A stretch of 64,000 nucleotides of DNA. Source: Isurus oxyrinchus (taxonomy: Eukaryota). The position numbers and the translations under genes were made by a program. The stretch spans positions 6,014,001-6,078,000 of the forward strand of contig JANJGN010000034.1 in the NCBI GenBank assembly GCA_026770705.1. The letters run 5' to 3'. The notes under the pieces are model-generated. The model had not been told where the DNA came from, did not search any database, and saw only the letters and a list, made by a program, of their open reading frames with translations. Of the stretch, positions 1 through 64,000 are shown in pieces (the first letter of the stretch is position 1; every line of letters begins with the position of its first letter).

Positions 1-599
1 GGATTCTCTGCTCAGGGAGCATCGTATCCGACGATGTCGGATTGCAACTGGGTCAGAATTTGGAAATAGTGGAATTGTTTTTAATTGCACGAAGAAACTT
101 GGTTCAAAACAGTACAGAGTTAATATTTTGATATCGAACAAGCACATATGCACTACAGAAGCTGGAAATAAATACATTGATGAAATGGGAACTTTCAGAT
201 TGTAACCAATGGCAACGAATGGGCAGACTTTGTTTTCGTTTGTGCACAAAACAGACGATGATGTGCTTGCCCTAATGGCTCATCAGGCCGATGAAAAGGT
301 TTGGTACTTAAAATGTAAAGAAAATTCTTCGACTTGCAAGGTAAGTAAGAGAGCGTACTTCAAAGCAGAATTAGACAGAAAACGTTAAGCACAGTTCTGT
401 GTCTCCAGGCACCTGATGTGCAGCCCATGTTTCAGCTCGTCTTCCTGCAGTCAAAGCAAAACAACCACTCATGCACCCTATTGTGAATTTAGAGAACCAT
501 TGCTCACACAGTGAAAGATGACACCGTGGAATTCGCTACATTAATTATTGATTATTCTTGGCTCTTCTACCAACTGCAAACGTAAACATACAAACACAG

Positions 600-1460
600 T
601 AACTAGGGCCAGGGTTAATTCAGTTGCCCCTTCAAGTTTGTTCCGCCATTCACTAAGACTACAAGTGATCGGATTGTAACCTCCTGCCTACCCACGATGA
701 CCTTTCACCCGTGCGTTATTCATTAATCTAACTAGTTCTCCTTTACCATAACTAAACACGCTGCTTCCACTGCATTTAGAGGAAGACAGTTCCAAAGAAT
801 CTCAGCCTTCTGAGAAAAAAAATCTTCACACCAATATTTACAATGAGTGACACCTTTTTTTTTAAATGGTAACCCTTAGTTCTAGAATCTCCCACAAGAG
901 GAAATATCCTCTTCACTTTCATTCTGTCCATATCCATCCTAAACACAAGAGCATACTTGTCAAACTGTCTGAACTTTTGTCATAAGATAACCCGACAATT
1001 CCTGCTAATGGACTTCACTGTTTCTAATGCATTTGCACATGTCCTAAAATAAGCAGACCAAAAAATGTACGCGGCGCACAAGATATGGGCTCACCAGTGC
1101 CCTATAGAAATACAGGATACGTTCTCTGACTTTGAGTCAATTCCATTCGCAATGAACGATACAATTCTAAAGCTTTCTTAGATGATTGCTGATTTTGCAT
1201 ACTCGCCTTTTGTGGTTCATGCACTAGGAAACCCAATCTTTTCCGGAGCATAGAGTTCCGCAAACTCTCACCATTTAGATAATAAGCTTTTTTTTTCATA
1301 ATCCTTAACAAAATGGACAATTTACATTTTCCTACTTTATACTCTATTTGCCTGGTCTTTGCACAGTGACTTACCTATCGATTTTGCTTTCTAGCCTCCT
1401 CACGTTTTCCCCATAACTTAGCTTCCTATCTACTTTTCTGTGGTCAGCAAATTTAGCAAC
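600..1460 (-). mobile_element. Degenerate CR1-type LINE 3' fragment
   Basis: Minus-strand YYLNGESL...LGFLVHEPQKASMQ..Q..KKA resembles the CR1 ORF2 C-terminus; boundaries approximate. Confidence 0.75.
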
Positions 1461-3199
1461 CACAAACCTAACTAATTACTCTGTTTCCAAACCTCATAGT
1501 TGTATCCATCTGTGAAATATCCTCTCCAACGTCTTCTTAACGTAAAATACAGCTCTTACTGAAATCTACCTATTATTTCGTTCATCCCTCATTCTTTTAA
1601 ACGTTTTCTAAAATGTCTTTTAAGAATTCGGACCATTCCAAATTATTGGTCTTTGTTCAGACCGTGCAGTTGGTAAAGCTGAGTTATCGAAGCCAGAGGA
1701 AAACTTATAATAACTGTCATAAGTTATAATTTTGAGGGATATGTTTATCATGCGGCCATACATGGAATAAAGAGACCCCTTGTTCTCGAAAGGTTTTATA
1801 ATCAGCTAAAGGAAACCTCTTATTAATTTGCACACTTTAAATATATGCACGGGGCTACAAATTACTACGATCATAACTTTTAACACATTCCCAAACTAAT
1901 ACCCATTCAGGCAACATGAACTAAAAGAATTAGCCAGGCGGAACATTTTACGAATTGAAAATGAGGCTATTTTCTCTTTGGTTACTGTCGAGACAGTTGG
2001 GGGCTTTCAGCTGCTTTTGATCTTACATTGCCTCTGCTCTACACACATAAAACTGCTCGAGTTATTCCTAGCATTGTTCCTTGCATGTACTTTCTCATTG
2101 AATCACCAGCCTCTTTGAACTCAAACTTTTAACAAGAAAGCACCTTAAATAGAAAGATTTGTATTAGGTATATAATCATATATCTATTTATCTGCTGGCT
2201 AGGTAGTAGTTTTCACAACACTTGTTGAATCCACCATCAAAGAAAGCAAATAAAGGCTATTTATCTTACATATCAAAACTAGTACAGACTAGCTGGTTTT
2301 CATCCAGTTAAGATACACCCACAAACTAAACTTCTGTTTTGATAGAAGAATAGTTTCCAATAATAATGTATACATTAATAACTTCGTGACAGTCACATTA
2401 TTGGACACAATGCTGCAGCTGAGGCAGATCCAATGCTTTATTCATTTATTCATTCAACATCGTTGATTTTGTTCTGAACTCCTCTCTTTCTTAAACACAG
2501 GATGCCATATACTTTCTTTGAAAAATCTTCAACACGTCTGGCCATTTGAGCCATATGTTCACATATACCCATATATCTCTATGTTGCGCTGACCTTTTGA
2601 TGAGTTACACTTTCGATTTTGTTACCTTCCATTGTTCTGCCGCACAAAATGTGTCAGCTCATGTCTTTTTATTCTGAAAAAACCATAGGATAAACATAAC
2701 ATGAGCGGACCACATATCAAAAATGAGTTAAAATGCATACCCAGTAACATGAAATAGTACAAGGCAGTCTTAGGCCATTAATCGTGGGCCTGAATCAGGC
2801 ATAGTCAGGATTACTGATGTGCGCCTACAGGGCAATCCAGGCCTGGAAATTAACCTTGTACTTCTGTTTTATGTAGAATGGATTGGGTGGGGCCAAACGC
2901 TATCTGTATTATCTGTGGCTTTTTGAGATAACATTCTATTTTGAAAATAGAAAGTGCTATCCATAGCAGACATTTTGAATATTTGTACTTTGAAAAAAGA
3001 GATAAGAAAGGTTGATTCACATAACTATGTCCGGTATAAAATCCACTTCGTGGTCTGGAGGTTCGGTGAGAAAAATGTTGACAAACACGGCACCTGAGTT
3101 AAAGAAAATAGAATAACAATATGACGAATTTCAATTGCCTTGATAATAATTTAACAGAAGAGTCGCTAAAGGAAGAAGAATTTAGCATTCCTACAAAGT

Positions 3200-5400
3200 A
3201 CTGGTGGCCCCATTCTCTCTGACTATTTCAAAGAAAAAAAACGAGCAAGGATTTTGTATCAACCATTTAATGAGGAATTGAACCAGGATAAAGAAGGTCG
3301 GTAAAAAAAAAGTGAAATACCAGCTGGGCATTTATTATCTTAATTATGTTAAAGATGATGACAATTAAGGTCATAAGTACAACAAAAGCAAGATTTAAAG
3401 GTTGGAGATCAGGTGATTTTTAGGGGTTCATTTAGAACTTCTGAAAATGACATGACCAAGAAATTGGTGAAGAGTAATCTGGAAGGGCAACGGGAACATT
3501 AAACAGAAACGAATTCAATACAACGCAGGGATATATATTCTGGAAGACAGAGAGAAGAAATCAAATTTTGTGAAATATGAATGTTGCATGAAGGCAAAAT
3601 AAAGCAACTATCAATTAGCAAAGACAAATGTGATAAGTACATAAAGAGTATAAAAAGACATAAGAGAGAATACCATGAAACTAGGAATATGGTCCAAGAA
3701 GCAGTTAAGATGTCAAAGAGAAGCTATAAAATCATATTATTAATGAGCATAAAACCAACAAAATAATTTACCAGCTCTTCAAAAAAATAAAGGCTGTAAT
3801 GGGGGTAGTGTGATTAAAAGATAGAAAGCAAAATGCAACAAGCAACAAAACAAATATGCTTTACAAATGTACGAGTTAGGAGGCTGATTAGGCCCCTCGA
3901 TCCTGCTCCTCATTTCAGTTGGAAGATGATAAATATGGCTGTGTCCTCAAGTCTACATTCCCGCCTATTCAAGAAATCCTTTCACCCAGTTGTTCGGCAA
4001 TGATCTGTCTACCTCTTTCTTGAAAACATAATAATCAACCATCTTGCTTCCAACATTCGCTGGGGGTGAGATCCAAAGACAAACTATGGTCTAACTTGCA
4101 AGCACAAAACCTTCCCATATACGCCTCAAACTGGAGAGACGTTATTCTTTATTTTGGATTTAACACTGAACGGTGAGAGGAGAATTGGGATAGGTGCGTT
4201 TAAAATAAAAAAAATAATTGAATCGACCAAACAACAACAGAGGCTATAATCCCTGCCCCCGATCGATGGTGTCTACATATGCTAAAAGATTCTGAAGAAG
4301 ATATATAAGTGGAACTAATACGCATATTTAATAGTCTGTAAGACAAAGCTGTAACACTGGAATTCTAGTGGAAACTTGCTGTAATTTCCATGTTTAAGAA
4401 ATGGGCAAAACATCGCCTTCTAACTATAGGCCAGTCTTGTTAAAGTCTGGGCAGGAAAATAATGGAATACCTATTCAATAAGGTTATAGAAGAACAAGTA
4501 TCATGGTTAACATGATTCACACACGCAGACACACAGAGAAACACATATAATATGTGAACATATATTTGTATACAAATGGGTGGAAGTAAGGTTGATGCCG
4601 TGCCCACTTTTTCGAATGGTCTTGAATAAGCTTTTCCTGTGTGCATCAATGAAAGAGGGGTGATAATGTGGAGTTAGGTGACAAGTAACGGAATGGAATG
4701 GTTAACTCGCTTCAAGGCGTAAAACAGAGACTGAGAGTAAAAATGGGTTATTCGGAGTGGCAGAAAGTGAACGTGGTTTTCCAAAAGGATGTTTTCTGGC
4801 TCCACTGCTATTTAATATTCCTTTTAACGACTTTGATTGAGGAGTTAGAAACTCCATTTGTAAATTTGTGGCGTTCAGCAAAATGGGGAGAATGTGAAAA
4901 CGGAGGTGCATTGCAGTAAATTGCATGAAGACATTATTCAACCTCGAGAAAGGACGAACAGTTGAAAATGAAGCTGAATACAGATTTCTGTAAGATATTA
5001 CGTTTTGGTTGGAAGCATTCTTGTTTCGTTTTGAAACGTGAAAGTCTTGGTAGGATTAAGGAAAGTAGGGGTCCCAGTCGACAAAAGCAGCAATCGCTAA
5101 AATTTTCATCGCTGGTGAGGACGTCCACAAAAACAAAAGCATCACAAGTTTCTGCAGGGATGTAGCTTAACGTGCTAATGTTATGCCATACCAACAAATA
5201 CATTGGGAATCCCGCGAAAAATCGTCTTTAACGAAATTAATAGCATACTTGCATTCAAGTGGAAGCTAGATAAATATATCGGTGAGAAGTTGATATAGGC
5301 TTTCAATGATAAATTTGGATGAGGAAATATAGAAGGAATTTCAACTGAAGCCTTAGCGCTTGATAGCCTGAAATATCTCTTTCTGTGATGTACATCCGAA
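3200..5400 (+). mobile_element. Highly decayed CR1-type LINE ORF2/RT relic with a nested opposite-strand fragment (~3870-4100)
   Basis: aactataggccagtc (NYRPV), KQRLRVKMGYSEWQKV and an FKWKLDKY-like 3' end; many stops and frameshifts. Confidence 0.7.
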
Positions 5401-5784: not shown

Positions 5785-5811
5785 AGCTCTATGATCTACA
5801 GAAAAAGTGCA
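5785..5811 (+). CDS. Microexon 1, unit 1 (27 nt; ELYDLQKKC)
   Basis: tttccttag|AGCTCT...AAGTGCA|gtaagt; homologues at 35331 and 62347. Confidence 0.88.
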
Positions 5812-7280
5812 GTAAGTATTGCCTACTGCGGTGATTTATTATTTATTTTCGCAGAGTTATTTCGACTACCTGAGCATGCAATTTTGCGCTGGCCTCCCCA
5901 TGTAATTCAGGAATCGTGGGCTAAAAATCCCCCAAGAACCATCTCCGAAACAATAGTACAAAGTTTGACTTTCGGAAGTTCTTTCATTGAGTTCAAGATG
6001 TTACTCTTTTTACAGTCAGACAGAGGTCAATGCTTTGCGAAAAGTTGAAATCCTCTCCGGTAAAGTCCGCAGTTCCTTCATCGAATCAGCTTCTGCAATT
6101 TTTATATTTACTTTAAATCACCAACAGTTGATTTTGGAAAGCTGAAGTACAGCTGTTTTGAAGATGCAGGGGTTGAGTGGCAAGATGAGGGATTCCTCAC
6201 CGACCTCCGATGATGCACTCAGTCAATTTGCAGTTTGTTTATACTGGACGTCATTGACCTGCAGAGATTTTAGAACACTACTCTAAAAGCAAGCTCGTCC
6301 ATTTTGAATGTCATCTCTGTGTTGGCCCTCGCTGGACAAGCATAGAAAGGGATCTTCAACTTGGCGGGGTAAATTGGGAGGTGGACATTTTACTTTACTT
6401 AGCTTACATTTGCATAACGGTTTAAGAAGAAAAGCCTATCATATAAAGAAGATTCCAGCTGGTTTCATATATCCCACCTGAGCTTTTGCAAGGATGTCCT
6501 GAATGTACACTTCTGGTAACATAAATAGAGTAATAGAGCCATCGGAGAAAATGCAATAAGCATTAAAATTCCTTTCAGAACTGAGACAGTTTTGAAGTTC
6601 TTAAGAGTCGGCATAGTGAATATTATTCCACTCATGGCAGCAGAGGAGAAGGGGGCGTAAACGGTCAATTAATATGATAGTCCGCAATCGATCAAATATA
6701 GGTTAGAAAAGTGCACCTTCACTTATTGAGTGGGTCAAACATAAATGTTATCACTGTAGGCAACAGTCGCGCCTGATAACATACATAGTTGTAAAGGGAG
6801 AATGACGCACAGAAACATATAAACTGAATTATTCGTAGGGTTAAATAGAGACTGGCAGAAGTAGGCCCATCTGATTCCTTAACACTGTTATCGTGGATTT
6901 GAGCTGACCATCCTGCTTATTTTTTGTTATTAATTCTATGTAACTCTAGAAAGCATATATTGCAGAAATGTTATCCCTTTTAGCACCTTTTTGTCACTCC
7001 CCTCACTCTGAGACCACACCCCCCCACCATCACCCTACGCCTTGAACACTAACGTGGTCCTGGACTGAAAACTACTCCAGGCCAGAGAGTGGAATGCCAA
7101 TTGTTCCTTGCTTTAAAATCCTGCACAAAAATGCCCATTACATTGACTGTCATAACTCACCCGGCGCGATTGAAATCAACTTCTCCTAATGAATATAACA
7201 ACTCAGCCAAAGTTTGCACTCCAGTAGCGTTATGTGTCACTAACAGGCCGGCGGTTGAACTATTCCTGTAACTTTTGCAG

Positions 7281-7307
7281 AAGCTGATCTCGACCAAAAA
7301 GATGAGG
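7281..7307 (+). CDS. Microexon 2, unit 1 (27 nt; KADLDQKDE)
   Basis: cttttgcag|AAGCTG...GATGAGG|gtaatg; same peptide in all three units. Confidence 0.88.
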
Positions 7308-7993
7308 GTAATGTACAACATCACACGTGCAGTACTTTGTTTCCATTGCACTTTATACTGGTTGCATCTAAGGGAAATAGTTGAATTTAATGACCGCGGA
7401 CACAGTGTCCAGAATACTCACGTGTTGCCTGGGAGGTGGTTGCAACCTAGTTCTGGATCAGAGGCCTCCATATAAAACGTCAGCTTAAAGTATGAGTGAA
7501 CGTTTACATGCCTATACTGCCGAGTCGAAGGTTGAAACTTTCAGGTGAAATATTAAACTTCAATTGTTCAACTTTCCTCTGACATTGCCATAAGCAGCGA
7601 AAGGCCAAAAATATCCGGAAAATAAAATAACACAAAAGGAATTGGCCCCCTGTTGTCTAAGCACTCTATATATCTGAAGAATCAGTGCAAGTAGATTATC
7701 GATATAATATCACTTTCAGGTTTTTCGGAGCTTGCTCTGTGTAAAATAACTCTTGCATTTTCTGTATTATTAGCTTGAATGTATTTCCAAATGTGGGCCA
7801 TGTGATGTTGCATGTCCTGAGAATGTGACGGGCACCACAACAATTTTCACACACACCTAAAATGAAACAAGAATGGTTGATGTGCCAGCATGCCAACAGT
7901 AATGAAAACGTAATTAATGCGAAGTCTGAGGCTAAATATTGATATTTCTTTGCTGAAATGAAATTCCACTTGTTTATTTTACAAAAATGCAAG

Positions 7994-8020
7994 AATTCGC
8001 CAAGAAAACTGGAGAATTAG
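7994..8020 (+). CDS. Microexon 3, unit 1 (27 nt EFAKKTGEL; possibly ancestrally 36 nt from 7985, EMQEFAKKTGEL)
   Basis: Strong donor TTAG|gtgagt; the only AG acceptor is gcaag at 7993; the upstream position reads ttttacaa rather than ttttacag. Confidence 0.65.
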   Translation, partial: NSPRKLEN

Positions 8021-9571: not shown

Positions 9572-9586
9572 AAAATGTAAAGAAGG
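9572..9586 (+). CDS. Microexon 4, unit 1 (15 nt; ENVKK)
   Basis: attcacag|AAAATGTAAAGAAGG|gtaagt; homologue at 39177. Confidence 0.82.
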
Positions 9587-10196: not shown

Positions 10197-10232
10197 AACT
10201 GGGCACCTGCCAAGATACAGTAAAAGATTTAG
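10197..10232 (+). CDS. Microexon 5, unit 1 (36 nt; ELGTCQDTVKDL)
   Basis: tttctccgccttgcag|AACTGG...GATTTAG|gtgagc; homologue at 39801. Confidence 0.9.
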
Positions 10233-11188: not shown

Positions 11189-11203
11189 AAAAATTAAGAA
11201 GAG
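11189..11203 (+). CDS. Microexon 6, unit 1 (15 nt; EKLRR)
   Basis: gtttcacag|AAAAATTAAGAAGAG|gtaagt; homologue at 40785. Confidence 0.85.
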
Positions 11204-11559
11204 GTAAGTGGAAATATTCTCTAGCACCTGACCGTCTAACGTGGTCAAATAAAAGACGAGGAAAGATGGATTTGCAGTGATTACAAATTCCAATTTAAAG
11301 TAACTTATAAATTGTCATTATTATATCTAAATACCTCTGTGGCCTCGCCCTTCCATATAGCCTTGAGAATCCTCTGGCCTTACAACTGGCTGCAAGTTTT
11401 GTCTTCCCACCAAGCTGGCCACTTTCTGATCGCGCTGTACATTCACCTTACCAATGGCGATTTATGGCTTCTACAATATGTCCCAAGGCTCAAAAGCAAA
11501 TTTCCTAAAACTTGCACCTCAAACTCTCCTTCCTCCGTTAACAGTCACATATTTCCTGG

Positions 11560-12700
11560 GCGTTTTCCAAAGTCCACACCTCCTCATCACCCCGGATTCT
11601 GGTTAATAATTAAAATTTCGTTAAAAACATGGTGATTTGCAATGAGGTTCCTTACGCCCTGTGGCTCTTTGGTTATCGAGAATGTCTGCTAGGAACCTTA
11701 GAAATACTCAGCAGACGATAAGCTGGCTTACATGTCCTCAGAACAAACAGGGGAATACGTGGCATCTTGAAGAACTCAATGACTCTTCTGGTGAACAAAG
11801 GCTGCATCAGGACCTAACCTCCAAACGTTTTAGTTTTCTGCCATTTGTCCGAGCTGTCGTTCTCAACAGGCACGCCTGGAAGATGCTGTGCAACACTTTA
11901 TCAATCCAAAACTTTTGCCCGCACGGGCATCTTTCTTTCCGAGCAAATCTACCATGACATCAGGTGTCCAGCGAGTGGCGTAGGGAACACTGTTGTGTTG
12001 TATCAAAACAATCACTTGAATTATGCATGGACTGCATTTGGTCAATTGAGAAAGCGAGCATTCGAAGGTCGCAAAACCAAAACTGTCAGGAAGCTCATGA
12101 TTTGTTTTTTGTGCCTGATACCCACCTTACTCTGCAAGGCCGAAGCTGCAAGATGGAAAATGTACAGGAGGCACCACAAGTCACTTGGGTCATACCGTTA
12201 AAAGGGGCTGTGAAAGAAATTGCATATTAGTGGGAGGGCAGACAGGCAGACATTGTCAGCTGTCAGATTTCAGACTTCCAAAGCAGGTATTTTTCTCCAA
12301 GAGTAGCGAGGACAGACGCACTTGAGGAGTGCAGAGGATGCTCTTAAGGGATGTGCTGAAAAGCAATATGAAGAAAATGAATTTTTCACATCGACATTTC
12401 AGTGGACACCGTTTACCGATGAAACCAAATGGCACCAGTCCCTACAGCAAGGACCCCAGCACTTTCAAAACAAACAACTATAAAATGATTCGGAAGAAAC
12501 AGGAGAGGCCAAAGGAAAATGGCATGTTTCGAATTAATGATACAGGACCTGGCACCCATCAAGGCATGAGTGCATAAAGTCTGCATGTCCCGAATCTGCC
12601 TCATCAGCCATTTCTGGCTCATGAAAGACAATTGTCCTCGCAAGTGAAGCCTAGCCAGTAATAACATTGTCTGCAAGCAATTAATCACGTGACCCAATGT
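11560..12700 (+). mobile_element. Degenerate RTE-clade-like LINE RT fragment
   Basis: AFGQLRKRAFEGRKTKTVRKLM...IPTLLCKAEA..W.MYRRH.KSL resembles the post-RT region of RTE LINEs (AFGRLRKRVF...TKLMVY...PTLLYGAETWT.YRRH). Confidence 0.75.
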
Positions 12701-12949: not shown

Positions 12950-13930
12950 AACATTTGTAACATAATCAAAGAATTTAGCTTGTCCTAGATTGGTTACAGC
13001 ACTGAAAGAGGCCATCGGGATCTTCGCGTCGGAGGCGGATCTCTGGGTGATTATCTCGGCTGTTCTCCTGGTCCAGATCTTCACCTGCAATGCATGCAAC
13101 TTGCTTGCTATTCAAATAATTACTCAGCTCCCTATCAAAGGCCACGATTGTCCCTTCGCCGAGCTCATTATTAGACATTGCATTTAAGAACCTCATGATA
13201 CGCAGCACATTTATTTTTCCCCATGTCCCGTTTGGTTCTCTTCAGTAGACGTTAAATGAATGTCTGCCATTTCTTGACCATTCCAGATGGGAACAGTCTA
13301 GGGCTGCCTAACATTTCCAGGCCCCGTCGTGAATTTCAGATGCCCCGTCAAATCTCCTTTCAATCATTTTTTTTATATGTTTGTACAACCGCTCTAAATT
13401 CTCCAATCTTTCCTCCAAGAAGAAACAATCGTCTCTGGAAACATTGCCATGAAGACATTCTCTATCCTCTTTAACGACTTAACTTCACCCTTAACTATGA
13501 TGTCTAAAATATGAAACAATACCCTAGCTGAAGTTGAACTACTGGTTAAAACCACTAGTTTTACCATAACTTCCTTTCTTTGGTTGCCTATTCGTCTATT
13601 TATAAAGCCGAGGATTTCATCCGGTTAAGTGACAACATTTTCAATCTGCCCTGCATCTTGCAACCATTTGTCCTCTTATACTCCCAAAGCCCCATCAGTA
13701 GTTTCAATCCCCTTTGCAATGCTATCACAAGTTGTTCATTACGTCCTCCTCCCAAAATGAATCACTTCATGCCTCTCTCTATGATTTTCACCTGAAATAG
13801 TTCCTCCAATTCCACGAGTCCAACTGCGTCCGTTTGATGTATTTCACCATCTTCCTTGCAATGCATAGCCCAGTAAAATCTGAAAACCGAAAATCTGAAA
13901 GTGTTGCCCTCGACACTAACGTTTGTGACC
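12950..13930 (-). mobile_element. Decayed CR1-type LINE fragments
   Basis: EGTIVAFDRELSNYL resembles the CR1 ORF2 end; upstream atgcctctctct...ccaaaatgaatcacttca is typical of reverse CR1 RT. Confidence 0.55.
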
Positions 13931-14022: not shown

Positions 14023-14058
14023 AGCTAAGCGACTGTCAACAAGCAGTAAAAGATCTAG
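14023..14058 (+). CDS. Microexon 7, unit 1 (36 nt; ELSDCQQAVKDL)
   Basis: aattacag|AGCTAA...GATCTAG|gtgagc; paralogous to exon 5; homologue at 43565. Confidence 0.88.
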
Positions 14059-14474: not shown

Positions 14475-14501
14475 AAGAAAAACTCAACGCAAAAGAAAGA
14501 G
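14475..14501 (+). CDS. Microexon 8, unit 1 (27 nt; EEKLNAKER)
   Basis: gagcag|AAGAAA...GAAAGAG|gtatgt; one difference from the 44023 copy. Confidence 0.82.
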
Positions 14502-46728: not shown

Positions 46729-47949
46729 GTAGCCAGTTTAAGAATTTGCTGTTTGTAAAAGACAGATACTATCGTGTTAGTAGTCTATCTATGCGCCTTT
46801 TGTTTCCTGATTAACTTCTCTCAAATAGCATTTAGTATTATTAATCGGAAGATCGGTTGAATTTGGTAATGGGCAAAATGTGGAGAAAATCTTTCAGTTT
46901 GATGTCGCAGCCATAATTGAGAGCCAGTAAGATAGTAGTTTATCATGTATACAAACTAAAACATAGGAGGAATGTATTGATCCAGAAAACGATTAGAATG
47001 TGGAATTCGCTGCTGCATGATCCTTTCTTACAGGGAATTTCGCTGCATTTTTTTTTAAGGCTGAGGACACCGAGATCCCACGAAAATTCAATCGACCTGA
47101 TTATCATGGGGTAAATCTGGTGTTGTCCCCAAAAAAAAATTAGTTTAGCATTGCCAACTCCATATTAAACTTTCCTGTGCATTGTTAAGCCAAGTTACCG
47201 CGTGCTTGCAGTCTGGCTTAAAGACTTACTTCCAGAAAATAGCGATCCTTTCCCTTGAGGACATTTTGGGCTTTGGGTCCTGACTTCGGAAGGATACATG
47301 TTGATCTATAAATATCAAGAATGTGTTCCCTACGGCGGTTTGCAGTCGTTTCAGAGGCCATGTGTGATGGAAATTGCTCGTCGAATTCTCTGTCAGCCAA
47401 CGAGCTGAATGGCGGTCGATCATTTAGGAATGCTGTGTACCAAACTCTGTAAAGTTCATGCACTAAGTCACAAATCAAACTGATCATTCTAATCAGAATA
47501 TTAAAGCGGAGTCTCTCACATCCTCATATAGAAGCTATGTAAACAATATGTACATGCACAAAAACATTTTGCCTGATTAAACAAAGGTGCTATGAATTAC
47601 ACCAAAACATTTCTAGGTTAACACGGATTTTAATTTCTCTAACAAAGACAGTTCACGAATGAAAACATGCCAATATCTCCTTTGAAATGCAGAAGTTCGT
47701 CACAAATAAAATGCAGTTAGCGAAGGAGATTCGTATAATTCCAGCTGCATTCCCCTATTCAAGCTAAGTTTCTAACAGCAGTATAGGGTCCAGACACGAT
47801 GGTTAAGAGGATTACGGGGCCAGTTTGATTGCTGTTGCGGAATGTCAGGATTCTAAACGGAACTCTTTGTACTCTAGACGAGGAAATGTATCTGATAACA
47901 TTGAGAATGCCATGATCCTTATAAACCAGTTGCTTTCTTTCTGTCTTAG

Positions 47950-47976
47950 AATTGAATGACAGTCAGCGAAAGTGCA
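47950..47976 (+). CDS. Microexon 11, unit 2 (27 nt; ELNDSQRKC)
   Basis: tctttctgtcttag|AATTGA...AGTGCA|gtgagt. Confidence 0.88.
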
Positions 47977-48833: not shown

Positions 48834-49259
48834 NNNNNNNNNNNNNNNNNNNNNNNNNNNNNNNNNNNNNNNNNNNNNNNNNNNNNNNNNNNNNNNNNNN
48901 NNNNNNNNNNNNNNNNNNNNNNNNNNNNNNNNNNNNNNNNNNNNNNNNNNNNNNNNNNNNNNNNNNNNNNNNNNNNNNNNNNNNNNNNNNNNNNNNNNNN
49001 NNNNNNNNNNNNNNNNNNNNNNNNNNNNNNNNNNNNNNNNNNNNNNNNNNNNNNNNNNNNNNNNNNNNNNNNNNNNNNNNNNNNNNNNNNNNNNNNNNNN
49101 NNNNNNNNNNNNNNNNNNNNNNNNNNNNNNNNNNNNNNNNNNNNNNNNNNNNNNNNNNNNNNNNNNNNNNNNNNNNNNNNNNNNNNNNNNNNNNNNNNNN
49201 NNNNNNNNNNNNNNNNNNNNNNNNNNNNNNNNNNNNNNNNNNNNNNNNNNNNNNNNNNN
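48834..49259. other. Assembly gap (426 N)
   Basis: Run of N at the position homologous to the unit 1 TAGA tract. Confidence 0.99.
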
Positions 49260-50049: not shown

Positions 50050-52950
50050 GCAGACGGTGAAATTGTGGGAAAACAGGAATGACTGCTCGGCTATGGAGAA
50101 TGCGAATGGGTTCTACCGGTCATAGGGCATCAGTCGTTCTGGACATGTTGCCCCAAACCCACCATATGCCTTTTACTTGCCATCAGAAATGGTCACAGTG
50201 TTGAATCAAAAGTGCAACAGAAAATTGGATAAGGGCCGAAACTGGAGAGACATGTCAGGTTCGAACCAGTTACTGGGTAAAGCAACAAAAAATTCAGCCC
50301 TGACAACCCTGCTAAGATAGCTTTACTAACAACTGGGGGCTGGTGCCAACAGGGGGATATAAATCGCACAGGCCAGTTAAACATAAGTCATATTTATAAT
50401 CAGGGATTCACCGTTGCCGTCAAAGGCATGGCATGGCCATCTTTGGACAGGCCCAGCCCAGATGGTGGCGTTACAGAGTGTTGATGGAGCCTAAGCTCCG
50501 ACTCTGGACCCCATGAAGTCACATGACATCAAGCCAAACATGGGCAAGGAAACCTCCTGCTGATTAGCTCGTGCCCCAGTCAACAACCAACTTTGCAGCT
50601 GATGAATCATTACTCCTCCATGTTAAACGTCACTTGGAGAAACATTGAGGGCAGCAGGGGCAGAACATTTACTTCAATCACCAACACGAAAATTGGCTTC
50701 GTAGCACCACAGTAGACCGAGCGAGATGAGTTCAAAGTGACATAGGTGCTAGGCTGGGGCTGTGGCTGTTCGTGAGGGAGCAAACAAGAGAGGGAACAAT
50801 ACCTGGCCTCATTCTCAGGAACCTGCCTGCTGCTGGGGTGTCTGTCGATGAAAGTATCGGTAGTCGTGACCACTGCACAGTTGTTGTGGAGACAATGGGG
50901 ATACCAGCCAACTTGTGGTGCTGCACTACTATCGTGCCAAAGGTGATAAATTAGGAACAGATCAACCATGTAAAACCGAGGTAGTCACGAGCCTATGTGG
51001 TCCATCCACAGAAGCAGAACTGTACTCTTTCACGTTGTGTAACCTCATTGCCCGGCACATCCTACAGTCTTCAATCACCAGCCAGCTTGGGTATCCAGCC
51101 TGGTTCAAAGAAGAGTGCAAGGTGGCATGCCAGGAGCAGCACCAGTCATGCCTATAAACAAAGTGGCAACCAGGTGAAGCAACATAGCAGATCCACTTGC
51201 GTGCCAGACAGCATAAGCAGCAAGTGATAGACAGAGCTAATCCATTGCACAACCAGTGGAGCAGATCTAAGCTCTACAGTGCTGTCACATCCTGTTGTCA
51301 ATTGCGGTGGGCAATTACATAATGCACCAGAAAAAAGATCCACAACGGTCTCCATGCTTCTTGATGATAGACTGCCAAGCATCGGGGCAAAAAATAAGGC
51401 TCGAACATATGTAATAAGTATCGAGTAGGTAACCCATGTCGGCCCCGTCCAGAGATGCCCGGCTTTGCAGATGCCAGCCTTCAGCTAATTCTATTCACCC
51501 CATGTGATATCATGAAATGGCTGAAGCAACTGGATGCTGCAAAGGCTAGGTGCACTGACCATATTCTGGCAATTGTATTGAGGACTTGCTCAAGATTTTT
51601 TTGCGCCCTTATCAAGGCTGTTCCAGTACGGCTACAGCACTAGCATCGACCTTGCAATTTACTCCCTTGCCCAGGTGTGCCTTGTGCACACAAATCAGGG
51701 CAAATCGAAACCAGCCAATTATCGTCCCATCAGTATTCTGCCAATCATCAGTGAAGTGAGGAAAGTGTCAGGATCTGCTATCACGCGGCACTTGCTCAGC
51801 AATTACCTGCTCATTGCTCAGTTTGGGAACCGCCACTGTCCCTAGGTTCCTGACTGCATCACAGATTTGGTTTTAACAGGGACAAAAGGGCTGAACTGCA
51901 GTGGTGTCGTGAGAGTTTTTGTCATCGATAACAAGGTAGAATTGGCCAATTCTTCCACCAAGGAACCCTAGCAAAATTGGAGTCAATGGGAATCAAAGGG
52001 AGTTGTCTGCATTGGTTGAAATCATACCTAGCTGGAAGAAAGATTGCTGTCGTTGTTGGAGGTCAATGATCAACAGTTAAAGGGCATGATTTCAGGAGAT
52101 CCTCAGGGTAGTGTTCTACGCCCAACCGCTCTCAGCTGCTTTTTCTTGGAACTTCCTTCTGTCATAAGTTCAGAAATGGGGGTATTTGCTGATGACCGCA
52201 CAATATACATAACAATTCATGACTCCTTAAATAATGAAGCAGTCAATTTCCAAATGCAGCAAGACATGTGCAAGCAACGATCATCGTTATCAAGAAATTG
52301 TAAATCCATCACCTTATGACAATTAATGGCAATGTCCACAAGAACAGCTCAGGCGCTGAAAACACTGCAAATTGGAATGGAGCTCCTATGGCCCGAAAGC
52401 CTGTCAACTATCTATAAGGTGCACTTCATCTTTGTGTTTGAATACTGCTCAGCTGCCTGGTTGTGTATAGGTCCAACAACACTCAAGAACCTTGACAACA
52501 TCCATGGTAAAACACCCCACTTGATTGGCAATCCCATCACACACACATTCAGTCCATCCACCGCCGATTGTCCGTGGCATCAGTGAATTATATCTGCAAC
52601 ATGCATTGCAGGAACTCAACAGGGCTCCTGTGGCAGCAGCTTCCAAATCAGCATTCACTGCCGTCTAGAAACAAAAGGGAAGCAGATTTCTGGGACCAAC
52701 ACCACTTTACAGTTCGCGAACAAGCCACTCATCATCCTGCCTTGAAAGATAGGTTGATTCCTTCACTGTCATAGGATTGAAATGATGGAAATCCTTTGCT
52801 AACAGCAGCGTACAATGACTTACTTCAGATGGACTGAAGCGCTTCAAGAAAGCAGTTCACCACATCCATCTCAAGGACAATTAGGGATGGGCAGTAAATT
52901 ATGTTCTCACCCGCGATGCCCAGATCACATGAATCAATTAAAGAAGGTGA
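50050..52950 (+). mobile_element. Degenerate CR1-clade LINE ORF2 (unit 2 copy)
   Basis: VREQTREGTIPGLILRNLPAAGVSVDESIGSRDH; SGDPQGSVLRPTALSCF...SEMGVFADDRTIY. Confidence 0.88.
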
Positions 52951-54568: not shown

Positions 54569-54595
54569 AACGAGATCTCGGGGAAAAAGATTCAG
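54569..54595 (+). CDS. Microexon 12, unit 2 (27 nt; KRDLGEKDS)
   Basis: tttctctcttgcag|AACGAG...GATTCAG|gtaaac. Confidence 0.86.
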
Positions 54596-55193: not shown

Positions 55194-55229
55194 AAATAAA
55201 TGATCTCCAGACTAAACTTCAGAAATGCG
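55194..55229 (+). CDS. Microexon 13, unit 2 (36 nt; EINDLQTKLQKC)
   Basis: ctcattttcag|AAATAA...AAATGCG|gttagt. Confidence 0.86.
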
Positions 55230-57046: not shown

Positions 57047-57073
57047 AAGAGAACCTAAAATCGATAGAAAAAG
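57047..57073 (+). CDS. Microexon 14, unit 2 (27 nt; EENLKSIEK)
   Basis: tttcacccttcgacag|AAGAGA...GAAAAAG|gtactg. Confidence 0.82.
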
Positions 57074-59169
57074 GTACTGTACTTACGTACTTCTTGTGTT
57101 AAAGTGATGTCAATTACTTTTGTATCTGATAATTGATACTTTCAGCCATTCTCCAAAGTGGGCTATTATAAAATGTTGCAAAAGCTATCAACTGAGCAAT
57201 CCCGCATGAAGGATTTTGGCAAATTATATGTGGGGAAGATGATTCGTGGGAGACACCAAACCTACAGAATGTATAAAGAAAAACGTATAATGTATTATAG
57301 TATCTATCCAATATGGAATTTAAGAACTTTATCTTTATACATACAATGTACAATCTTTTGCTGTATAGCACAATGTATGGAAGGGAATCTAGTTAAACGC
57401 ACATGATAACAAGAAAGAGAAGATGATCTTAATTGAGTGAAATGAAGTAGGGTAGATGTAGTACCATGTGAAATTTAAATGCCAATGGGTGGAATGGCTG
57501 CATGATGGCCGCTTTCTACTCTGAAAATGTAGTATAATGTTTCCATTTTGAGCAGTTTAAAATGCGTATTACCAGATTCATCGCTGAATAGGCACTCGTC
57601 TGATTTGTGCTTCTTATAATTGCAACAGGGCATCACACAGGGTATTGAACGGGAAGAAGTTGCATATCACCCGTGTTGTTTAGCTTCCAAAGTTCGACTT
57701 CCTCCTGCTGCTAGCTTTTTAGAAGTTTATATTTTCTTCTCAAAACAGAAGAATACAGGATATCAACTTCCGGCAGAATATTGGAATACGAGCTCTCAAT
57801 CCAACCCTCTAACTAACAAGAATGACAAAAACAAGTTTCACATATATAGCATGGTTAACATTTCAGAATGTTGGCAAGTGCATCAAACTATCGTTGTAAC
57901 GCAACAATTGATGCAGCTCAGCATAAGGCTACATTTGAACCCTTGGCAAAAAGTTTGATCAATGAATTAGCCATTAAGAGGCATGTTAAAAGTGGAAAGA
58001 CGTGTGAAGGGGCATCATTTAGTAAAGATTTACTGATTCTGTGATGCTGCAGCTGCATTCAGTGTTGCAATATTGAAGCAATTAATATCGCGAGATGAGC
58101 AGAATTACATTTCGGTGTGCACAGGTGCAGAACCAAATTACAGAGCTAACGATGGCTGAGGCCATCGAGGGATCTGGAACAAGGAGAATCAATTAGCACT
58201 TTAAAACCAAGGCATTTCTATTCCCTGGAACGTCTTATATAGCTGTGGATGCTACTTGAAAGACTGAAAGTAATTTTCTGTATGCATTCATTATATTGAA
58301 TTGCATGACATTTGCTGCACAACAGAAGGAAATTTGGCCCAAAAGGCCCAATTTGACATGCATTCTCTGTTCAGGGAGCATCGTATCCGACAACGTCGCA
58401 TTGCAATTGGGTTAGAACTTAGAAATAGAGTAATTGATTTTAATTGTACGAAGAAACTTCGTTCAAAACACTACAAAGATAAGAGTTCGATATCGAAGAT
58501 GAACATATGCACAACAGAAGCTAGAAAAAAAATACAATGATGAAATGGGAACTTTGAGATCTTCAGAATAGCAACAAATGAGCAGACTCCCTTTCATTTG
58601 TGCAGAAAGCAGACGATAATGTGCTTGTCCTGATAGCTCATCGGACCAATGAAAAAAATTGGCAGTGGAAACGTAAAGAAAATTCTTCGAAATACAAGGG
58701 AAGTGAAACAGCGTACGTCGAAGCAAAATCACCACTAATGCACCCTATCGTGGTTTTAGACAACTTTGTTTAAACAGTGAAAGATCACACTGTGGAATTC
58801 GTTATATCAATTACAGGTTGAAGCAATAGTATACAATTTTTAAAAATCATTTGATAATGAAATCATTGTTGCAGAGAGAAGAGGGACATACATCCCGTTG
58901 TATTGGCTGTCTGCCAGCACATCTTTTGCAAGCCCCACTCTCCTTTCCTTGTTGCCTGGTACTTTCATCTCTTCGGATGTTTTGCTAATTCCAGTTTGAA
59001 AGCCATTATTGAATCTACCTCCACTAAATTCTCAGGCATTGCAATGCAGTTCTTAACGTTTACTGTATTCCAAATAAATGTACTTCCTGTCGCTGTTCTA
59101 CGCATTCTAATTTTGTGTTCGCTTGTTCTTCACTCTTCTATCAACTGGAAAATTAAAGATATGAAAACA

Positions 59170-60075
59170 CAATCTAGGGTCAGGGTTCATTCAGTTGCCC
59201 ATTCATGGTTGCACCGCCATTCAGTAAGACTATATGTGATGGATTGTAACCTGCTGCCTACCCACGATAACCTTTCAACCTCTTGTTACTCATGAATCTA
59301 CCTAGCTCTGACTTTACAATAACCAAAGACTGTGCTTCAACTGCCGTTTGAGGAAGATAGTACCAAAGACTCTCGACCTTCTGAAAAAAAAATCTCACCT
59401 CTGTTTATATTGAGCGACACCTTATTTTTAAAATTCTAACCCCTAGTTCTAGATTCTCCCACAAGAGGAAATAGACTCTCCAGATCAATTCTGACCATAC
59501 ACCTCGGGATCTTTAATATTTTGATAAGGTCACCTCTTACTGTCCTAAACAAAAGAGGATACAAGTGTAAGGTGTCCAACCTTTCATCAAAAGACAACAC
59601 GACAATTCCTGGTTATGCACTAGTGGACCTTTTCTTAACTGTTTCTAACACATTTACACATTTCCTGAAATAAGCAGGCCAATAATGTACACGGCACTGC
59701 AGATGTGGGCTCACTAGTGCCCTATAGAAATGAAGCATAAGCTCCCTGCTTTTGAGACAATTCCCATCATAATGAAAGATACCATTCAACAGCTTTCTTA
59801 ATTGATTGCTGTTCCTGCCTACTAGCCTTTTGTGGTTCATGCAGTAGGACACCCAGTTCCTTCCAAATCTCAGAGTTCTGCAACATCTTATCATTCATAT
59901 AATATACTTCTTTTCGATTAACACTGCCACAATTTTCTCTTCTCCTACTTTATAATCTATTTCCCTGGTCTTTGCGCGGTCACTTACCTATCAATATTGC
60001 TTTATAGCCTGCTTATGTACTTCCCATAACTAAGCTTCCTATCTACGTTTGTGTGGTCAGCAAATTTAGCAACCA
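59170..60075 (-). mobile_element. CR1-type LINE 3' fragment (unit 3 copy)
   Basis: KSRELMLHFYRALVSPHLQCRVHYWPAYFRKCVNVLETVKKRST resembles CR1 [33 protein letters not shown]. Confidence 0.82.
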
Positions 60076-62346
60076 CAAACCTCCATATTTACATCGTTCC
60101 GAATTCTCATATTTGTATCCCTCTATGAAATCTCCACTCAACCGTCTCTTCTTAAAGTAAAATATACGAGGTACTGAAATCTACATATTCAGTCCCTCAT
60201 CCCTCATTCTTGTAAACGTTTTCTAAAATCTCGTTAAAGACTTCGGATCTTTCAAAATTATGGGTCGTTGCTTTGACCATGCAGTTCGTGCAGCTAAGTT
60301 ATTGAAAACCCCAGAGGAAAAGTTATAACAACTGTCATAACCTATAATTGTGAGTGATATGTTTAACATGCAACTTTAAATTCAGGAAAAATACCCGTTG
60401 TTCTCGAGAGGTTTTACATTCAGCTAAATGAAACCTAATTAATTTGCCTAAGTTAAATTTATGCTCGAGGCTCCAAATTACTACGATCATAACTTTTAAC
60501 ATATTCCCAAACTAATACCCGTTAAGGGAACATGAGCTCAAAGAATTGGCCAGGCAGAATATTTTACGTTGCAAAATAGAGGCTATTTTTGTGTTGGTGT
60601 TTGTGCAGACAGTTGGAGCCTTTCAACTGCTTTTGATCGCACACTGCTTCTGCTCTACACATTCAAAGCTGCTCAAATTATTCCTAGCATTGTTCATTGC
60701 ATGCACTTTATCATTGAATCACAAGCCTCTTTGAACTCAAACTTTTAACAATAAATCAACTTTCATAGAAAGAATTTTATTAGGTATGTAAAGATAATGC
60801 TAGTATCTGCTGTGTAGGTGGTATTTTTCACCTCACTTCTTGAATACAATATCAAAGAATGCAAATAAAGGCTATTTATCTTACATAGAAAAATAGTATA
60901 CATCAAAGAGTCCAGACTGGCTGGCTTTAATCCAATTAAGACACACCCAAAAACTAACCCTCTATTATAAAATATTTCTGTTTTCCGTAATAATGTAGAT
61001 ATTAATAACTTCGTTGCAGTCCCATTATTGGACACAATGCTCAAGTTGAGGCAGAACCTATGTTTTATAATTATTCATTGCAACATCCCTGATTTTTTTG
61101 TCAACGCCTCTCTTTCTTAAATTCAGGATCTGATTAGTTTCCTTAAAAAATCATCAACAAGTCTAGCTGTTTAAGCGATATGTTCACATATACCCCTAAC
61201 TCGCTCTGACCTTTTGGTTTGTTACACTTTGGATTTTATTACATCCCATTGCTCTACTGAACAAAATGTGTCAGCTCATGCCTTTTTGTTCTGCAATAGA
61301 TTTCATCTGCAAAAATCCTCTCCCTTCCAGGAGTTGTCCTCTGGCGACCAAGTGGAGCTGAATAACACAAATCTAAAAAAAAAGACAAACATAACTGAAC
61401 GGAACTCATATAAAAAAATAGTTAAATGCATGCCCAGTAATATGAAATAGTACAAGGCAGCTTACGGCCATCAATCGTGGGGTGGAATCAGGCACAGTCA
61501 GGATTACTGAGGCATGCCTACAGGGCAACCTGGCCTGCAATTTAACCTTGTAGTGTCTGCCGTATGTAGAAAGGATAGAGTGGGGCCAAATGCTATCTGT
61601 ATTAGCTGTGCCTTTTCGAGATTACATTCTGTTTTCAGCAATCGCTAAAAGATTCATCGCTTTGACGAAGTTCCCAAAAACAAAACAATCACGAGACTTA
61701 GTTTCTGCAGGGATGTAATTTCAGGAGCTGAACCAAGAAATACATTTGGGAATCTGGCAAAAAAAATTATCTTTACCTAAGTGAATAGCACAGATGCATT
61801 CAAGAGTAAGCTAGGTAAATATATTGGTGAGAAGATGATAGAGGCTTTCAGTAATAAATTTACATGAGGAAATATAGAAAGAATTTCAAGTGAAGCTTTA
61901 GCGCTTGATGGGCTGAAATATCTCCTTCTGTGATATATATCCTCAGCATAACTGCAGTTAATTAAATAACCTAATCGATACTTAAACACGGCCGAATAAT
62001 CTACTACTGTTTCTATTTTAATGTATATAACTGCGTAGAGATAGTTAACTAAATTCATGACTGAAACAGCAGCCGAGTAAGCAAAAAATGTTATCTCTGC
62101 AATTAGTTACAATGATTGGCAAATTGATCTGTCATTTGAATACAACCAGATGAACTGACATAACTCTGCTCATTCCAACTGGACTGGTGGGAGAATTGTA
62201 AAATTCATTGCCCATCCAAGTTGTCATTGCGGCGTTAATTTATGGACCCTTTTCTGCACAAAGCCCGATGTAATAATTTCATTTTTATCCTATTAAACAT
62301 TGTGTGTCATTGGACAAAAATGTGTTCATACTTTAATTTTCCTTAG

Positions 62347-62373
62347 AACTCTATGACCTGCAGCAAAAGTGCA
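62347..62373 (+). CDS. Microexon 1, unit 3 (27 nt; ELYDLQQKC)
   Basis: ttttccttag|AACTCT...AAGTGCA|gtaagt. Confidence 0.88.
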
Positions 62374-63864
62374 GTAAGTATTAGCTACTGCGCTGATTTA
62401 CTATTTTTTTCTGCTAAGATATTTCGACTTCCTGAGCATGTATGTTTGTGCTGGTCTCCCGTTGTAATTCAGGAATCGTGGGCTAAAAATCCCCCAAGTA
62501 GCATCTCCGAAACAATTTTACAAAGTTTCACATTCGGAAGTTCTTGCATTAAGTTCAAGAAGTTACTCAGTTTGCAGTCCGACATAGTTCAATGCTTTGC
62601 CAAAAGTTGAAATCTTCTCCATGCAAATCCGCTGTTACTTCATGGAAACAGCTTCTGCAATTGAATCGTTTATTGTAAATCATTAAGAGATTTTCTGAGA
62701 GACATGAAACATGATGTGATTTTGACGCCCCTCGTCCTTTAAATTGCAATGCTGAAGTACAGTTATTTTGCAGATACAGGGGTAGACTGGCAAGTCGCGG
62801 GATTCGTCAGCTGCCTCCCACAATGCACTCGCTCAATTTGCAGTTTATTTATACTCGACGTGATTGACACTGCAGAGATTTTAGAACACGACCCTACCAA
62901 AAAACGCGTCCCATTTAAATGTCGCCTCTGTGCTGGCCGTGGTTGGACAAGAATAGAAAGTGATCTGCAACTTGGTGGGGTAAATTTAGAGACGGACATT
63001 TTACATTTCTAGGCTTACATTTGCATAGCTGTATACAGATCGTAGAAAGTAGCTTCCTGCTGGTTTCATTTATCCCACCTGAACTTTTGCTTGGATATCT
63101 TGAATGTACAATTCTGACAACAAAAATAGAGTAATAGAGCCATCGGATAAAATGCAATAAGCATTAAAAGTCCTATCAGAACTGAGAAGGTTTTGAAGTT
63201 CTTAACAGTCGGCATAGTGAGTAGTATTACACTCATGACAGCGGGTGGGAAGGTGTCGTAAACTGACAATTAATATGATAGTCCGTAACAGATCAAGAAT
63301 GGGTTACATAAATGCAACTTCACTTATTGAGTGGCTCAAACATGAATTTTCTCACTGCAGGGAACAGTCGCGCCTGATAACATATACACATGTAAAGGGA
63401 GAAAGACGCACAGAAACATAAAAACCGAATTATTCATTGGGTAATTAGAGACTGGCAGAAGGAGTCTCTTCTGATTCCTTAACACTGATATCGTGGACTT
63501 GAGCTGACAGTCCTGCTTATTTAGTGTTACTAATTCTACGTAAATCTAGAACGCATCAATTGAAGAAATGTTATCCCTTTTAGCACCTTTTTGTTACTCA
63601 CACTCACTGCGATACCACCCCTTCTTACCCCAGCACACCTCTCTAAATTCAAAACTCTTCCTGGCCGGACAGGGGAGTGCCAATTGGTCCTTGCTTGATG
63701 GCCCTGCCCAAAAGTACGCATTACATGGACTGTCATAACTTGCCCTGCCGCGATTGAAATAATCTACTACTAATGAATATAACAACTCAGCCACAGTATG
63801 CACTCTAGTAGCGTCATGTGTCAATAAAAGGCCGGCGGGTGAACTATTCCTGTTACTCTTGCAG

Positions 63865-63891
63865 AAGCTGATCTCGACCAAAAAGATGAGG
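63865..63891 (+). CDS. Microexon 2, unit 3 (27 nt; KADLDQKDE)
   Basis: ctcttgcag|AAGCTG...GATGAGG|gtaaag; identical to the unit 1 exon. Confidence 0.88.
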
Positions 63892-64000
63892 GTAAAGTAC
63901 AACATCAAACGTGCAGTATTTCGTTTCCATTGCATTTACTATTTGCCGCACGTTAGGGAAGTAGTTGAATTTAATGACAGCGGACTCAGTGTCCAGAAGA

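Follow-up and report, generated by a model that had tools for sequence, protein, structure and literature searches.

When a cassette of exons is repeated in tandem, the repeat may lengthen one protein or copy a gene. The question arises for a 64,000-nt stretch of the Isurus oxyrinchus genome (the window), which the initial annotation had read as an intragenic duplication extending a single coiled coil. We regard one long polypeptide as the best reading of the sequence and hold it with moderate confidence; a candidate terminal exon in every unit is a reason for reserve.

Diverged tandem units of micro-exons

Self-BLAST of the window places the direct long repeats in one family, with offsets of ~29.2–29.5 kb and ~56.5–58.7 kb. 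These define three colinear units, A, B and C, arranged head-to-tail with a period of 29.2–29.5 kb (Table 1). Identity is 82.6% between A and B (27,948 columns), 83.3% between B and C (5,585 columns) and 82.1% between A and C (5,099 columns), and is near-uniform along the unit length. The units are about equally divergent, with more indel states common to B and C. Unit C lacks ~2.1 kb that includes one dispersed-repeat relic, and 662 bp of A are absent from B. Relics of dispersed repeats occupy equivalent positions in A and B, which agrees with the shared transposable-element insertions described earlier. An Rfam scan gave 0 matches; RVT_1 gave one weak match (E 0.023) in one of ten window frames scanned.

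The A–B distance (K2P 0.198, ~0.20 substitutions per site) indicates that the units are old and that present-day copy-number variation is therefore unlikely. A haplotig or assembly duplication is ruled out because A and B diverge by 17%. The suggestion that copy number varies among individuals is probably wrong: the units are 82–83% identical, against 98–99% in the recombining repeats of CR1, and so lack the near-identity seen where CR1 and LPA vary in copy number.

Each unit comprises 14 phase-1 micro-exons of 15, 27 or 36 nt that sum to 390 nt (130 aa), leaving the unit 1.3% coding and 98.7% intron. Odd exons (27 or 36 nt, with a Leu/Cys core) alternate with Lys/Glu-rich even exons (15 or 27 nt), and the seven odd/even pairs of a cassette encode 18, 14, 17, 21, 21, 18 and 21 aa. 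Joined, the 30 exons in the window yield a 277-aa chain that crosses both unit junctions without a stop, and every pairwise skip junction is likewise in frame and stop-free. The junction peptides (EENQKAMEK-ELFDQQQKC between exon 14 and the next exon 1, ETKLKGKEK-ELNDIQQKC between exons 10 and 11) and the junction coordinates (27913/35331 and 57073/62347) were reproduced exactly; the former junction is in frame and mirrors the latter, and the heptad register is kept at both unit borders. Paralogy is detectable between the exon 5 and exon 7 regions and between the exon 8 and exon 14 regions, while little of the older intron-flank homology survives from doublet to doublet (best mean z 2.7).

A splice-site scan blind to the exon list, using as input the sites kept in A and B, recovered 13 of the 14 exons among its 45 best of 2,068 plus-strand candidates, and the first 17 rows already contained 11 of them. 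The exception, exon 3, has too weak an acceptor to be picked up (−9.0 and −6.8, below every other of the 30 exons); an in-frame ATG lies just 5′ of it in A and B. A minus-strand gene was rejected, its best candidate scoring 7.7 against 12.6 with inconsistent phase. The AG/GT dinucleotides are retained at 28/28 sites in B and 4/4 in C, and the exons carry no indels. Against a background of 62%/58% this retention has a P of 7e-7, a value inflated because conservation partly guided the choice of exons. The splice sites are mostly unremarkable and survive in every copy, and the exon 1 acceptor is kept in 3/3.

Table 1 Units, exons and other features of the window (nt positions)
Feature	Position	Strand	Remarks
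Repeat unit A	1–29204	+	Border is the window start; true breakpoint within the exon 14–exon 1 intron
T before A exon 1	1900–2272	+	Candidate; frame 1900–2115 open, TGA 2116–2118, AATAAA 2249
Possible acceptors of T before A exon 1	before 1911, 1928 and 2072	+	Phase 2 (1911); phase 1 (1928, 2072)
A exon 1	5785–5811	+	27 nt, odd type
A exon 2	7281–7307	+	27 nt, even type
A exon 3	7994–8020	+	27 nt; weak acceptor; least secure exon
A exon 4	9572–9586	+	15 nt
A exon 5	10197–10232	+	36 nt
A exon 6	11189–11203	+	15 nt
A exon 7	14023–14058	+	36 nt; exon 5 paralogue
A exon 8	14475–14501	+	27 nt
A exon 9	16122–16157	+	36 nt
A exon 10	17179–17205	+	27 nt; within 80-bp A/B-identical stretch
A exon 11	18429–18455	+	27 nt; exon 1-like
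A exon 12	25390–25416	+	27 nt
A exon 13	26018–26053	+	36 nt
A exon 14	27887–27913	+	27 nt; region related to exon 8 region
Repeat unit B	29205–58359	+	82.6% identity to A
T before B exon 1 (after A exon 14)	31355–31717	+	Candidate; TGA 31571–31573, AATAAA 31694
B exon 1	35331–35357	+	
B exon 2	36876–36902	+	
B exon 3	37585–37611	+	
B exon 4	39177–39191	+	
B exon 5	39801–39836	+	
B exon 6	40785–40799	+	
B exon 7	43565–43600	+	
B exon 8	44023–44049	+	
B exon 9	45670–45705	+	
B exon 10	46702–46728	+	
B exon 11	47950–47976	+	
Assembly gap, unit B	48834–49259	.	426 N; adjoins microsatellite; counterpart A 19935–20103, no exon called there
B exon 12	54569–54595	+	
B exon 13	55194–55229	+	
B exon 14	57047–57073	+	
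Repeat unit C, partial	58360–64000	+	~2.1-kb deficit (A 2943–5087) at 61635
T before C exon 1 (after B exon 14)	60516–60887	+	Candidate; TGA 60732–60734, AATAAA 60864
C exon 1	62347–62373	+	
C exon 2	63865–63891	+	

Selection and the predicted coiled coil

Substitution patterns indicate that the exons are under moderate purifying selection in all copies. Exon dN is 0.57 of the intron rate (0.40–0.80, p 0.001) at a dS/intron ratio of 1.00, and the NG86 dN/dS is 0.43 (Fisher p 0.019); restricted to the exons, the free-ratio codon test falls short of significance (omega 0.63, p 0.21). Exon identity (347/390) exceeds the 82.4% background (p 2e-4). In the exon flanks, conservation is maximal at the splice signals (90.5% at −20 to −3 and 92.9% at +3 to +6) and falls to 82–84% beyond. 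Under neutrality, the chance of no stop is 0.013 and that of no indel 0.057.

The predicted product of the exons is a heptad coiled coil that lacks proline and has cysteines in its core. Hydrophobic residues recur with a period of 3.5, which was reached by 0/300 shuffles, and the 277 aa hold no proline and one N-glycosylation sequon. All 13 cysteines fall at assigned core positions, with 6/6 unchanged between A and B (neutral P 0.045); the overall core-position count of 62/79 is partly circular, as the assignment rule was set within the analysis. The computed length of 130 aa is 19.3 nm, matching the ~19 nm per unit first proposed.

Searches for the gene family returned little. A stacked-alignment profile of the odd exons found 0 relatives among 44 candidates, and its one match among 220, a TPR/CHAT protein, was judged spurious, as were the representative-library matches P0002 and P0003, both of which align where the first row contains residues derived from intron. 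A 12-column exon profile run at low power against 177,635 solved-structure sequences matched three unrelated chains (E 0.86–2). In a positive control at default settings, a 40-column profile scored the embedded true protein at E 120–2,700, so these blanks mean little.

A candidate terminal exon

The initial annotation had reported no start, stop or larger domain exon within a unit, and had named an overlooked first or last exon as a finding that would make the units separate genes. Its first and third elements stand in the scans made here. A start exon kept in each of the three copies was not found: the candidates between T, the terminal exon discussed below, and exon 1 number five rows, 0 of them in three copies, and all lie in a relic absent from C, although such scans could miss a short or non-conserved first exon. 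The units also yielded no large domain exon under selection and no exon for a signal peptide, an Ig domain or another domain. The absence of a stop exon is insecure, given that a candidate last exon, T, lies in every unit, as a possibility short of proof.

T is a 72-codon frame open in 3/3 copies. It ends at a stop common to them, has a conserved AATAAA downstream and includes a hydrophobic segment whose 19-residue hydropathy peak reaches 1.9–2.4 and is followed by ~30 more residues. It is the longest frame open in all three copies, its variable columns are distributed 14/12/26 by codon position, and among long shared frames it alone has a codon-position bias. Of 986 overlapping windows, 4 have a pN/pS equal to or below its value of 0.39, and the same region contains all four. 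In 16/2,000 region-wide shuffles a stretch of 60+ codons reached a pN no higher than that of T, the 60-codon figure being the only usable one from this null; thresholds for T were chosen after it had been noticed. Among the 12 AATAAA motifs kept in A and B, that of T has the longest shared upstream frame (72 codons, the next 40).

Other measures are less favourable. The dN of T is 0.75 of the intron rate (0.52–1.04, p 0.1), and its low pN/pS is partly a synonymous excess because dS/intron is 1.73. Segment scans leave T below the null maximum (9.5 against a median of 10.5 three-way; 14.6 against a 95th percentile of 16.3 two-way), its 25-nt invariant run is ordinary (P 0.47), and shared frames of 70+ codons number 13 against 5–8 under the null. 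At T the first AG is in phase 2, and those in phase 1 either score poorly (−8 to −10) or leave just ~15 codons. No good bridging exon into T was found; U12-type splicing was rejected since the exon ends carry no conserved U12 donor. An exon at the strong, conserved acceptor at 2501 was also rejected; this acceptor lies within a dispersed repeat and lacks a common frame. A sequence search for relatives of T gave 0 of 1,713 candidates, Pfam one sub-threshold match in one of three copies, the Atlas nothing at >=0.9 with low recognition, and solved structures nothing relevant; an AlphaFold model has two helices (pTM 0.37). The case for T as a terminal exon is suggestive only (p ~0.01), its acceptor being weak or out of phase.

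A probable long rod, its rivals and known systems

On the preferred reading, one vertebrate gene would encode a long alpha-helical coiled-coil rod from paired phase-1 micro-exons. The cassette has undergone two or more head-to-tail duplications, each broken within an intron that follows an even exon and precedes an odd one, so that frame and heptad register continue. Unequal crossing-over long ago, in duplications close in time, may have superimposed the 29-kb steps on older two-exon duplications. A single transcript would splice exon 14 to the next exon 1, adding ~19 nm of rod per unit, and both ends of the gene would lie outside the window. The rod is probably a parallel dimer serving as spacer or tether, with Leu, Cys and some Lys at its core, and its length could be tuned further by exon skipping because every exon is symmetric. 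The symmetric phase-1 exons, in-frame junctions and exon 1 acceptor uphold the earlier proposal of one lengthened protein; candidate T weakens it.

What T does bears most on the rivals. It could serve as a usable alternative last exon per unit behind a single promoter, giving rods of stepped length. We consider this unlikely, at perhaps one chance in five; it is compatible with a single polypeptide but would alter the role of the duplication. The frame, pN/pS, shuffle result, AATAAA and hydropathy of T are as such an isoform ladder would have them; its dN not clearly below the intron rate, its scan scores below the null maximum, its poor acceptors and its lack of relatives speak against it. 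A more specific proposal, rather less probable, is that a weak alternative last exon, complete with hydrophobic anchor and poly(A) site, belongs to each cassette; one promoter would then produce a ladder of membrane-anchored, cysteine-linked rods in ~19-nm steps. Alternative termination would in this way select rod length, in an as yet undescribed protein family. Less probable again are separate tandem gene copies resembling chicken BG, each starting from a missed short first exon or the exon 3 ATG and ending at T. T offers a possible end per unit, the in-frame ATG a possible start in A and B, and the near-equal divergence and B/C-shared indel states resemble a gene array. Yet the exon 1 acceptor is kept throughout, no conserved start exon was found upstream, nor any domain exon in the units, and the heptad register crosses the junction; a start at exon 3 would also leave the selected exons 1 and 2 purposeless, T lying between exons 14 and 1.

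Two further readings are less probable still. That a transcript uses some exons or one unit, diversifying the rod rather than lengthening it, fits the skippable phase-1 exons and the only moderate selection, but no sequence feature of mutually exclusive splicing is seen and most splice sites are ordinary and kept; we think it improbable. A dead or decaying segmental duplication, its exons surviving by chance, is very improbable: the exons are tiny mutation targets and the free-ratio test is not significant, whereas the neutral no-stop and no-indel chances are low, all splice sites are retained and dN lies below the intron rate.

A literature search over the full text of non-subscription papers turned up no account of this locus or of a comparable coiled-coil case. 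Intragenic lengthening itself is already established in CR1, LPA and nebulin, and the present units resemble theirs in being colinear including introns, in carrying the same exon set and in keeping frame across junctions. Human CR1 contains an intragenic low-copy repeat of 18 kb and 8 exons, 98–99% identical and present in 1–4 copies (PMC5937907). Here too a multi-exon tandem unit appears to lie inside one gene, with frame kept and a longer protein per copy; unlike the polymorphic, folded binding domains of CR1, the units are 29 kb, 82–83% identical and plain coiled coil. The KIV-2 units of LPA encode kringle domains. They form a VNTR of 5.6-kb units at 1–40 copies per allele (PMC11462820), similarly protein-coding and kilobase-scale within a gene, while the units here are old and diverged. 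In nebulin, seven simple repeats make a super-repeat, and gain or loss of a whole super-repeat shifts length by 38.5 nm (PMC7673738). The hierarchy and the count of seven recur here, as would the stepwise length change on the preferred reading; nebulin's actin-binding modules match the thin-filament period, whereas our seven doublets differ in length. If confirmed, the locus would offer a clean, datable case of hierarchical lengthening, from doublets through a seven-doublet cassette to 29-kb super-repeats kept by selection, and would point to a long coiled-coil protein whose micro-exons gene predictors likely miss. The mechanism being known, its value lies in the gene itself and in whether T yields stepped isoforms.

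At the exon level the closest analogue is the chicken BG tail, a coiled coil of many tiny exons (13–36) with a split first codon and conserved cysteines, shortened by read-through and early stops (PMC4046983, PMC5938342). The small-exon, split-codon architecture is shared; BG exons measure 21 nt, with some of 18 or 24, against 15, 27 and 36 nt here, and 0/30 fit. Of the exons that would flank such a tail in the BG/butyrophilin family (Ig-V and transmembrane upstream and, in butyrophilins, B30.2 downstream), none was found in the window. The coiled coil of tetherin contains cysteines. Membership of the group that it forms with TMCC(aT) and PLVAP would call for a cytoplasmic tail and transmembrane helix at the N-terminus, a locus beside PLVAP and a hydrophobic or GPI-signal segment at the C-terminus. 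Tetherin, TMCC(aT) and PLVAP are membrane-anchored coiled coils, and TMCC(aT) can end in alternative C-termini, of which one contains a second hydrophobic segment (PMC10617486); micro-exon doublets are not described for the group in that account. Unlike in these proteins, the window shows neither a transmembrane exon for an N-terminus nor synteny; were T an exon, its hydrophobic segment would recall the second one in an alternative C-terminus of TMCC(aT).

Three tandem units of one repeat

Apart from the self-match, self-BLAST of the window returned 12 alignments, every one in direct orientation; a single tandem repeat, 29.2–29.5 kb in period, accounts for them all and confirms the three colinear units (A, B and C) recognized in the initial annotation. 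In global alignments, identity is about uniform over the unit (A–B 82.6%, B–C 83.3%, A–C 82.1%), and the K2P distance between A and B is 0.198. Within the three-way region (5,140 columns), B and C carry fewer private changes (370 and 394) than A (507) and share more indel states, which suggests that the duplications were successive and near each other in time. Relics of dispersed repeats, of a kind that would fit a shark-like origin, occupy corresponding positions in A and B, and the LINE-like relic in the exon 11–12 intron is older than the duplication. The window begins within the intron between exons 14 and 1, making a fourth unit upstream plausible.

Units at 82–83% identity are poor substrates for unequal exchange, so the copy-number variation initially suggested is unlikely among living individuals. 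By contrast, the CR1 repeats, which still recombine today, are 98–99% identical (PMC5937907).

Coordinates of the repeat units and of features within them
Feature	Unit A	Unit B	Unit C	Remark
Repeat unit, + strand	1-29204	29205-58359	58360-64000	C partial
Frame of candidate terminal exon T, + strand	1900-2118	31355-31573	60516-60734	72 codons, open 3/3; same TGA ends all
Candidate terminal exon T, full extent, + strand	1900-2272	31355-31717	60516-60887	Takes in the frame and the AATAAA
Decayed LINE-like reverse-transcriptase relic	21700-23700	50900-52900		Long exon 11–12 intron; RVT_1 E 0.023, below cut-off
Deletion in C			61635	~2.1 kb lost, LINE-like relic included
Segment absent from B	18782-19466			662 bp; part of a dispersed repeat recurring near 2415-2780 and 13513-13818
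426-N gap		48834-49259		Adjoins TC and GATA-type microsatellites; A counterpart ~170 bp
Identical block around exon 10	17140-17219	~46663-46742		80/80 bases; background 82%
Exon 3 with upstream bases	7970-8020	37561-37611		Weakest acceptor
Longest shared frame	11240-11635	40836-41231		131 codons, open in A and B, directly downstream of exon 6
Exon 1–2 intron block	5903-6052			130/150 conserved in three copies, p 0.02
Exon 1–2 intron block	6455-6604			129/150 conserved in three copies, p 0.03
Second GT, 13 nt past exon 14 donor	27927	57087		Kept in A and B; scores -3.5, -4.6

Micro-exons and the encoded coiled coil

The 14 micro-exons of a unit measure 15, 27 or 36 nt, are all in phase 1 and total 390 nt. 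A scan of the splice sites that A and B have both retained yielded 2,068 candidates on the plus strand, with 13 of the 14 exons ranked in the first 45, and the same scan gave nothing comparable on the minus strand. Splice dinucleotides are kept at 28/28 sites in B and 4/4 in C; the associated P of 7e-7 is inflated because conservation partly guided the choice of exons. No exon carries an indel, and 30 exons read through as 277 residues without a stop. Exon identity is 347/390 against a background of 82.4%. Exon dN/dS is 0.43 by NG86 (Fisher p 0.019), and a free-ratio codon model gives a non-significant 0.63 (p 0.21). Relative to the intron rate, taken as the neutral reference, exon dN is 0.57 (0.40–0.80, p 0.001) and dS 1.00. 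On these sequence comparisons, the exons are real and under moderate constraint.

The identical block at exon 10 reflects either local gene conversion or regulatory constraint, possibly on splicing. Approximately 28 bases upstream of exon 3 are also identical between A and B and include an in-frame ATG; exon 3 could have been cut back from 36 nt or could act as an internal start.

The 277-residue chain is proline-free, with abundant Lys, Glu, Leu, Asp and Gln. Its hydrophobicity repeats with a period of 3.5, which was matched by 0/300 shuffles. Odd exons contribute a Leu/Cys core and even exons are Lys/Glu-rich. Successive odd–even doublets encode 18, 14, 17, 21, 21, 18 and 21 residues; those of 21 and 14 are whole heptads, and the remainder shift the register. 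All 13 cysteines lie at core positions, as assigned by the analysis itself, and 6/6 are kept per unit (neutral P 0.045). The initial annotation likened the exon 14–exon 1 junction to that of exons 10 and 11, and indeed the same 3–4 spacing continues through both. Its estimate of about 130 residues and roughly 19 nm per unit agrees with the computed rod length of 19.3 nm. Paralogy is detectable between exons 5 and 7 and between the exon 8 and exon 14 regions, suggesting that the cassette itself would have grown through older doublet duplications.

One gene or several

The exon 1 acceptor, which requires an upstream phase-1 donor, is present in 3/3 copies. Between T, the candidate terminal exon preceding each exon 1, and exon 1 itself, start-exon candidates occur only within a repeat relic that C has lost, and none of the long shared frames has the character of a domain exon. 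Together these scans favour a single polypeptide, as first proposed, although that proposal overlooked T as a candidate end. One gene, lengthened through old cassette duplications, is probably the correct reading of the sequence. Separate genes are improbable, given an exon 1 acceptor in every copy with no start exon common to all.

Stepped isoforms ending through T are unlikely, but T qualifies the earlier statement that a unit holds no stop exon: this candidate exon has a common TGA, and some 130 nt beyond it lies an AATAAA that 3/3 copies retain. The frame starts out amphipathic over a short stretch and also encodes a hydrophobic segment (hydropathy over 19 residues 1.9–2.4). The T region has the lowest pN/pS among 986 windows, a run of 60+ codons with equally low pN arose in only 16/2,000 shuffles, and T is by far the longest frame upstream of any conserved AATAAA (n=12). 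However, T has a dN of 0.75 (p 0.1) and a dS of 1.73 of the intron rate, so its low pN/pS leans on synonymous excess; T did not exceed the null in segment scans, and long shared frames are commoner in the window than the null predicts. Each possible acceptor of T is weak, lies in the wrong phase or leaves just ~15 codons, no good bridging exon was found, and sequence, family-profile and structure searches returned no relative. From these data, use of T as an exon falls slightly short of an even call. If real, T more likely provides alternative ends of one gene than marks separate genes.

The longest shared frame sits in a 1.3-kb indel-free block and varies evenly over codon positions, a neutral pattern; its length is borderline under the null (P 0.03–0.06). 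The p values of the two exon 1–2 intron blocks come from shuffles, and the first block includes a shared frame of 43 codons that shows no third-position bias. The weak second GT past exon 14 would give phase 2, as does the first acceptor of T.

Comparison with known systems

The type of mechanism is already known. CR1 (an 18-kb, 8-exon unit with frame kept; PMC5937907), LPA KIV-2 (PMC11462820) and the nebulin super-repeats (PMC7673738) share the mode of working of the shark units. Chicken BG tails are alike at the exon level, with many tiny exons, split first codons, a coiled coil, cysteines and an exon number that varies (PMC4046983, PMC5938342). On exon size (15, 27 and 36 nt in the shark, rather than 21 nt), the units were not assigned to BG. 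Exon-stack searches, which had little power, identified no family, and a literature search of limited scope found no description of the locus. TMCC(aT), of the tetherin group, has an alternative hydrophobic C-terminus as T would supply (PMC10617486), and by analogy a tetherin/TMCC(aT)-like reading may serve as a lead.
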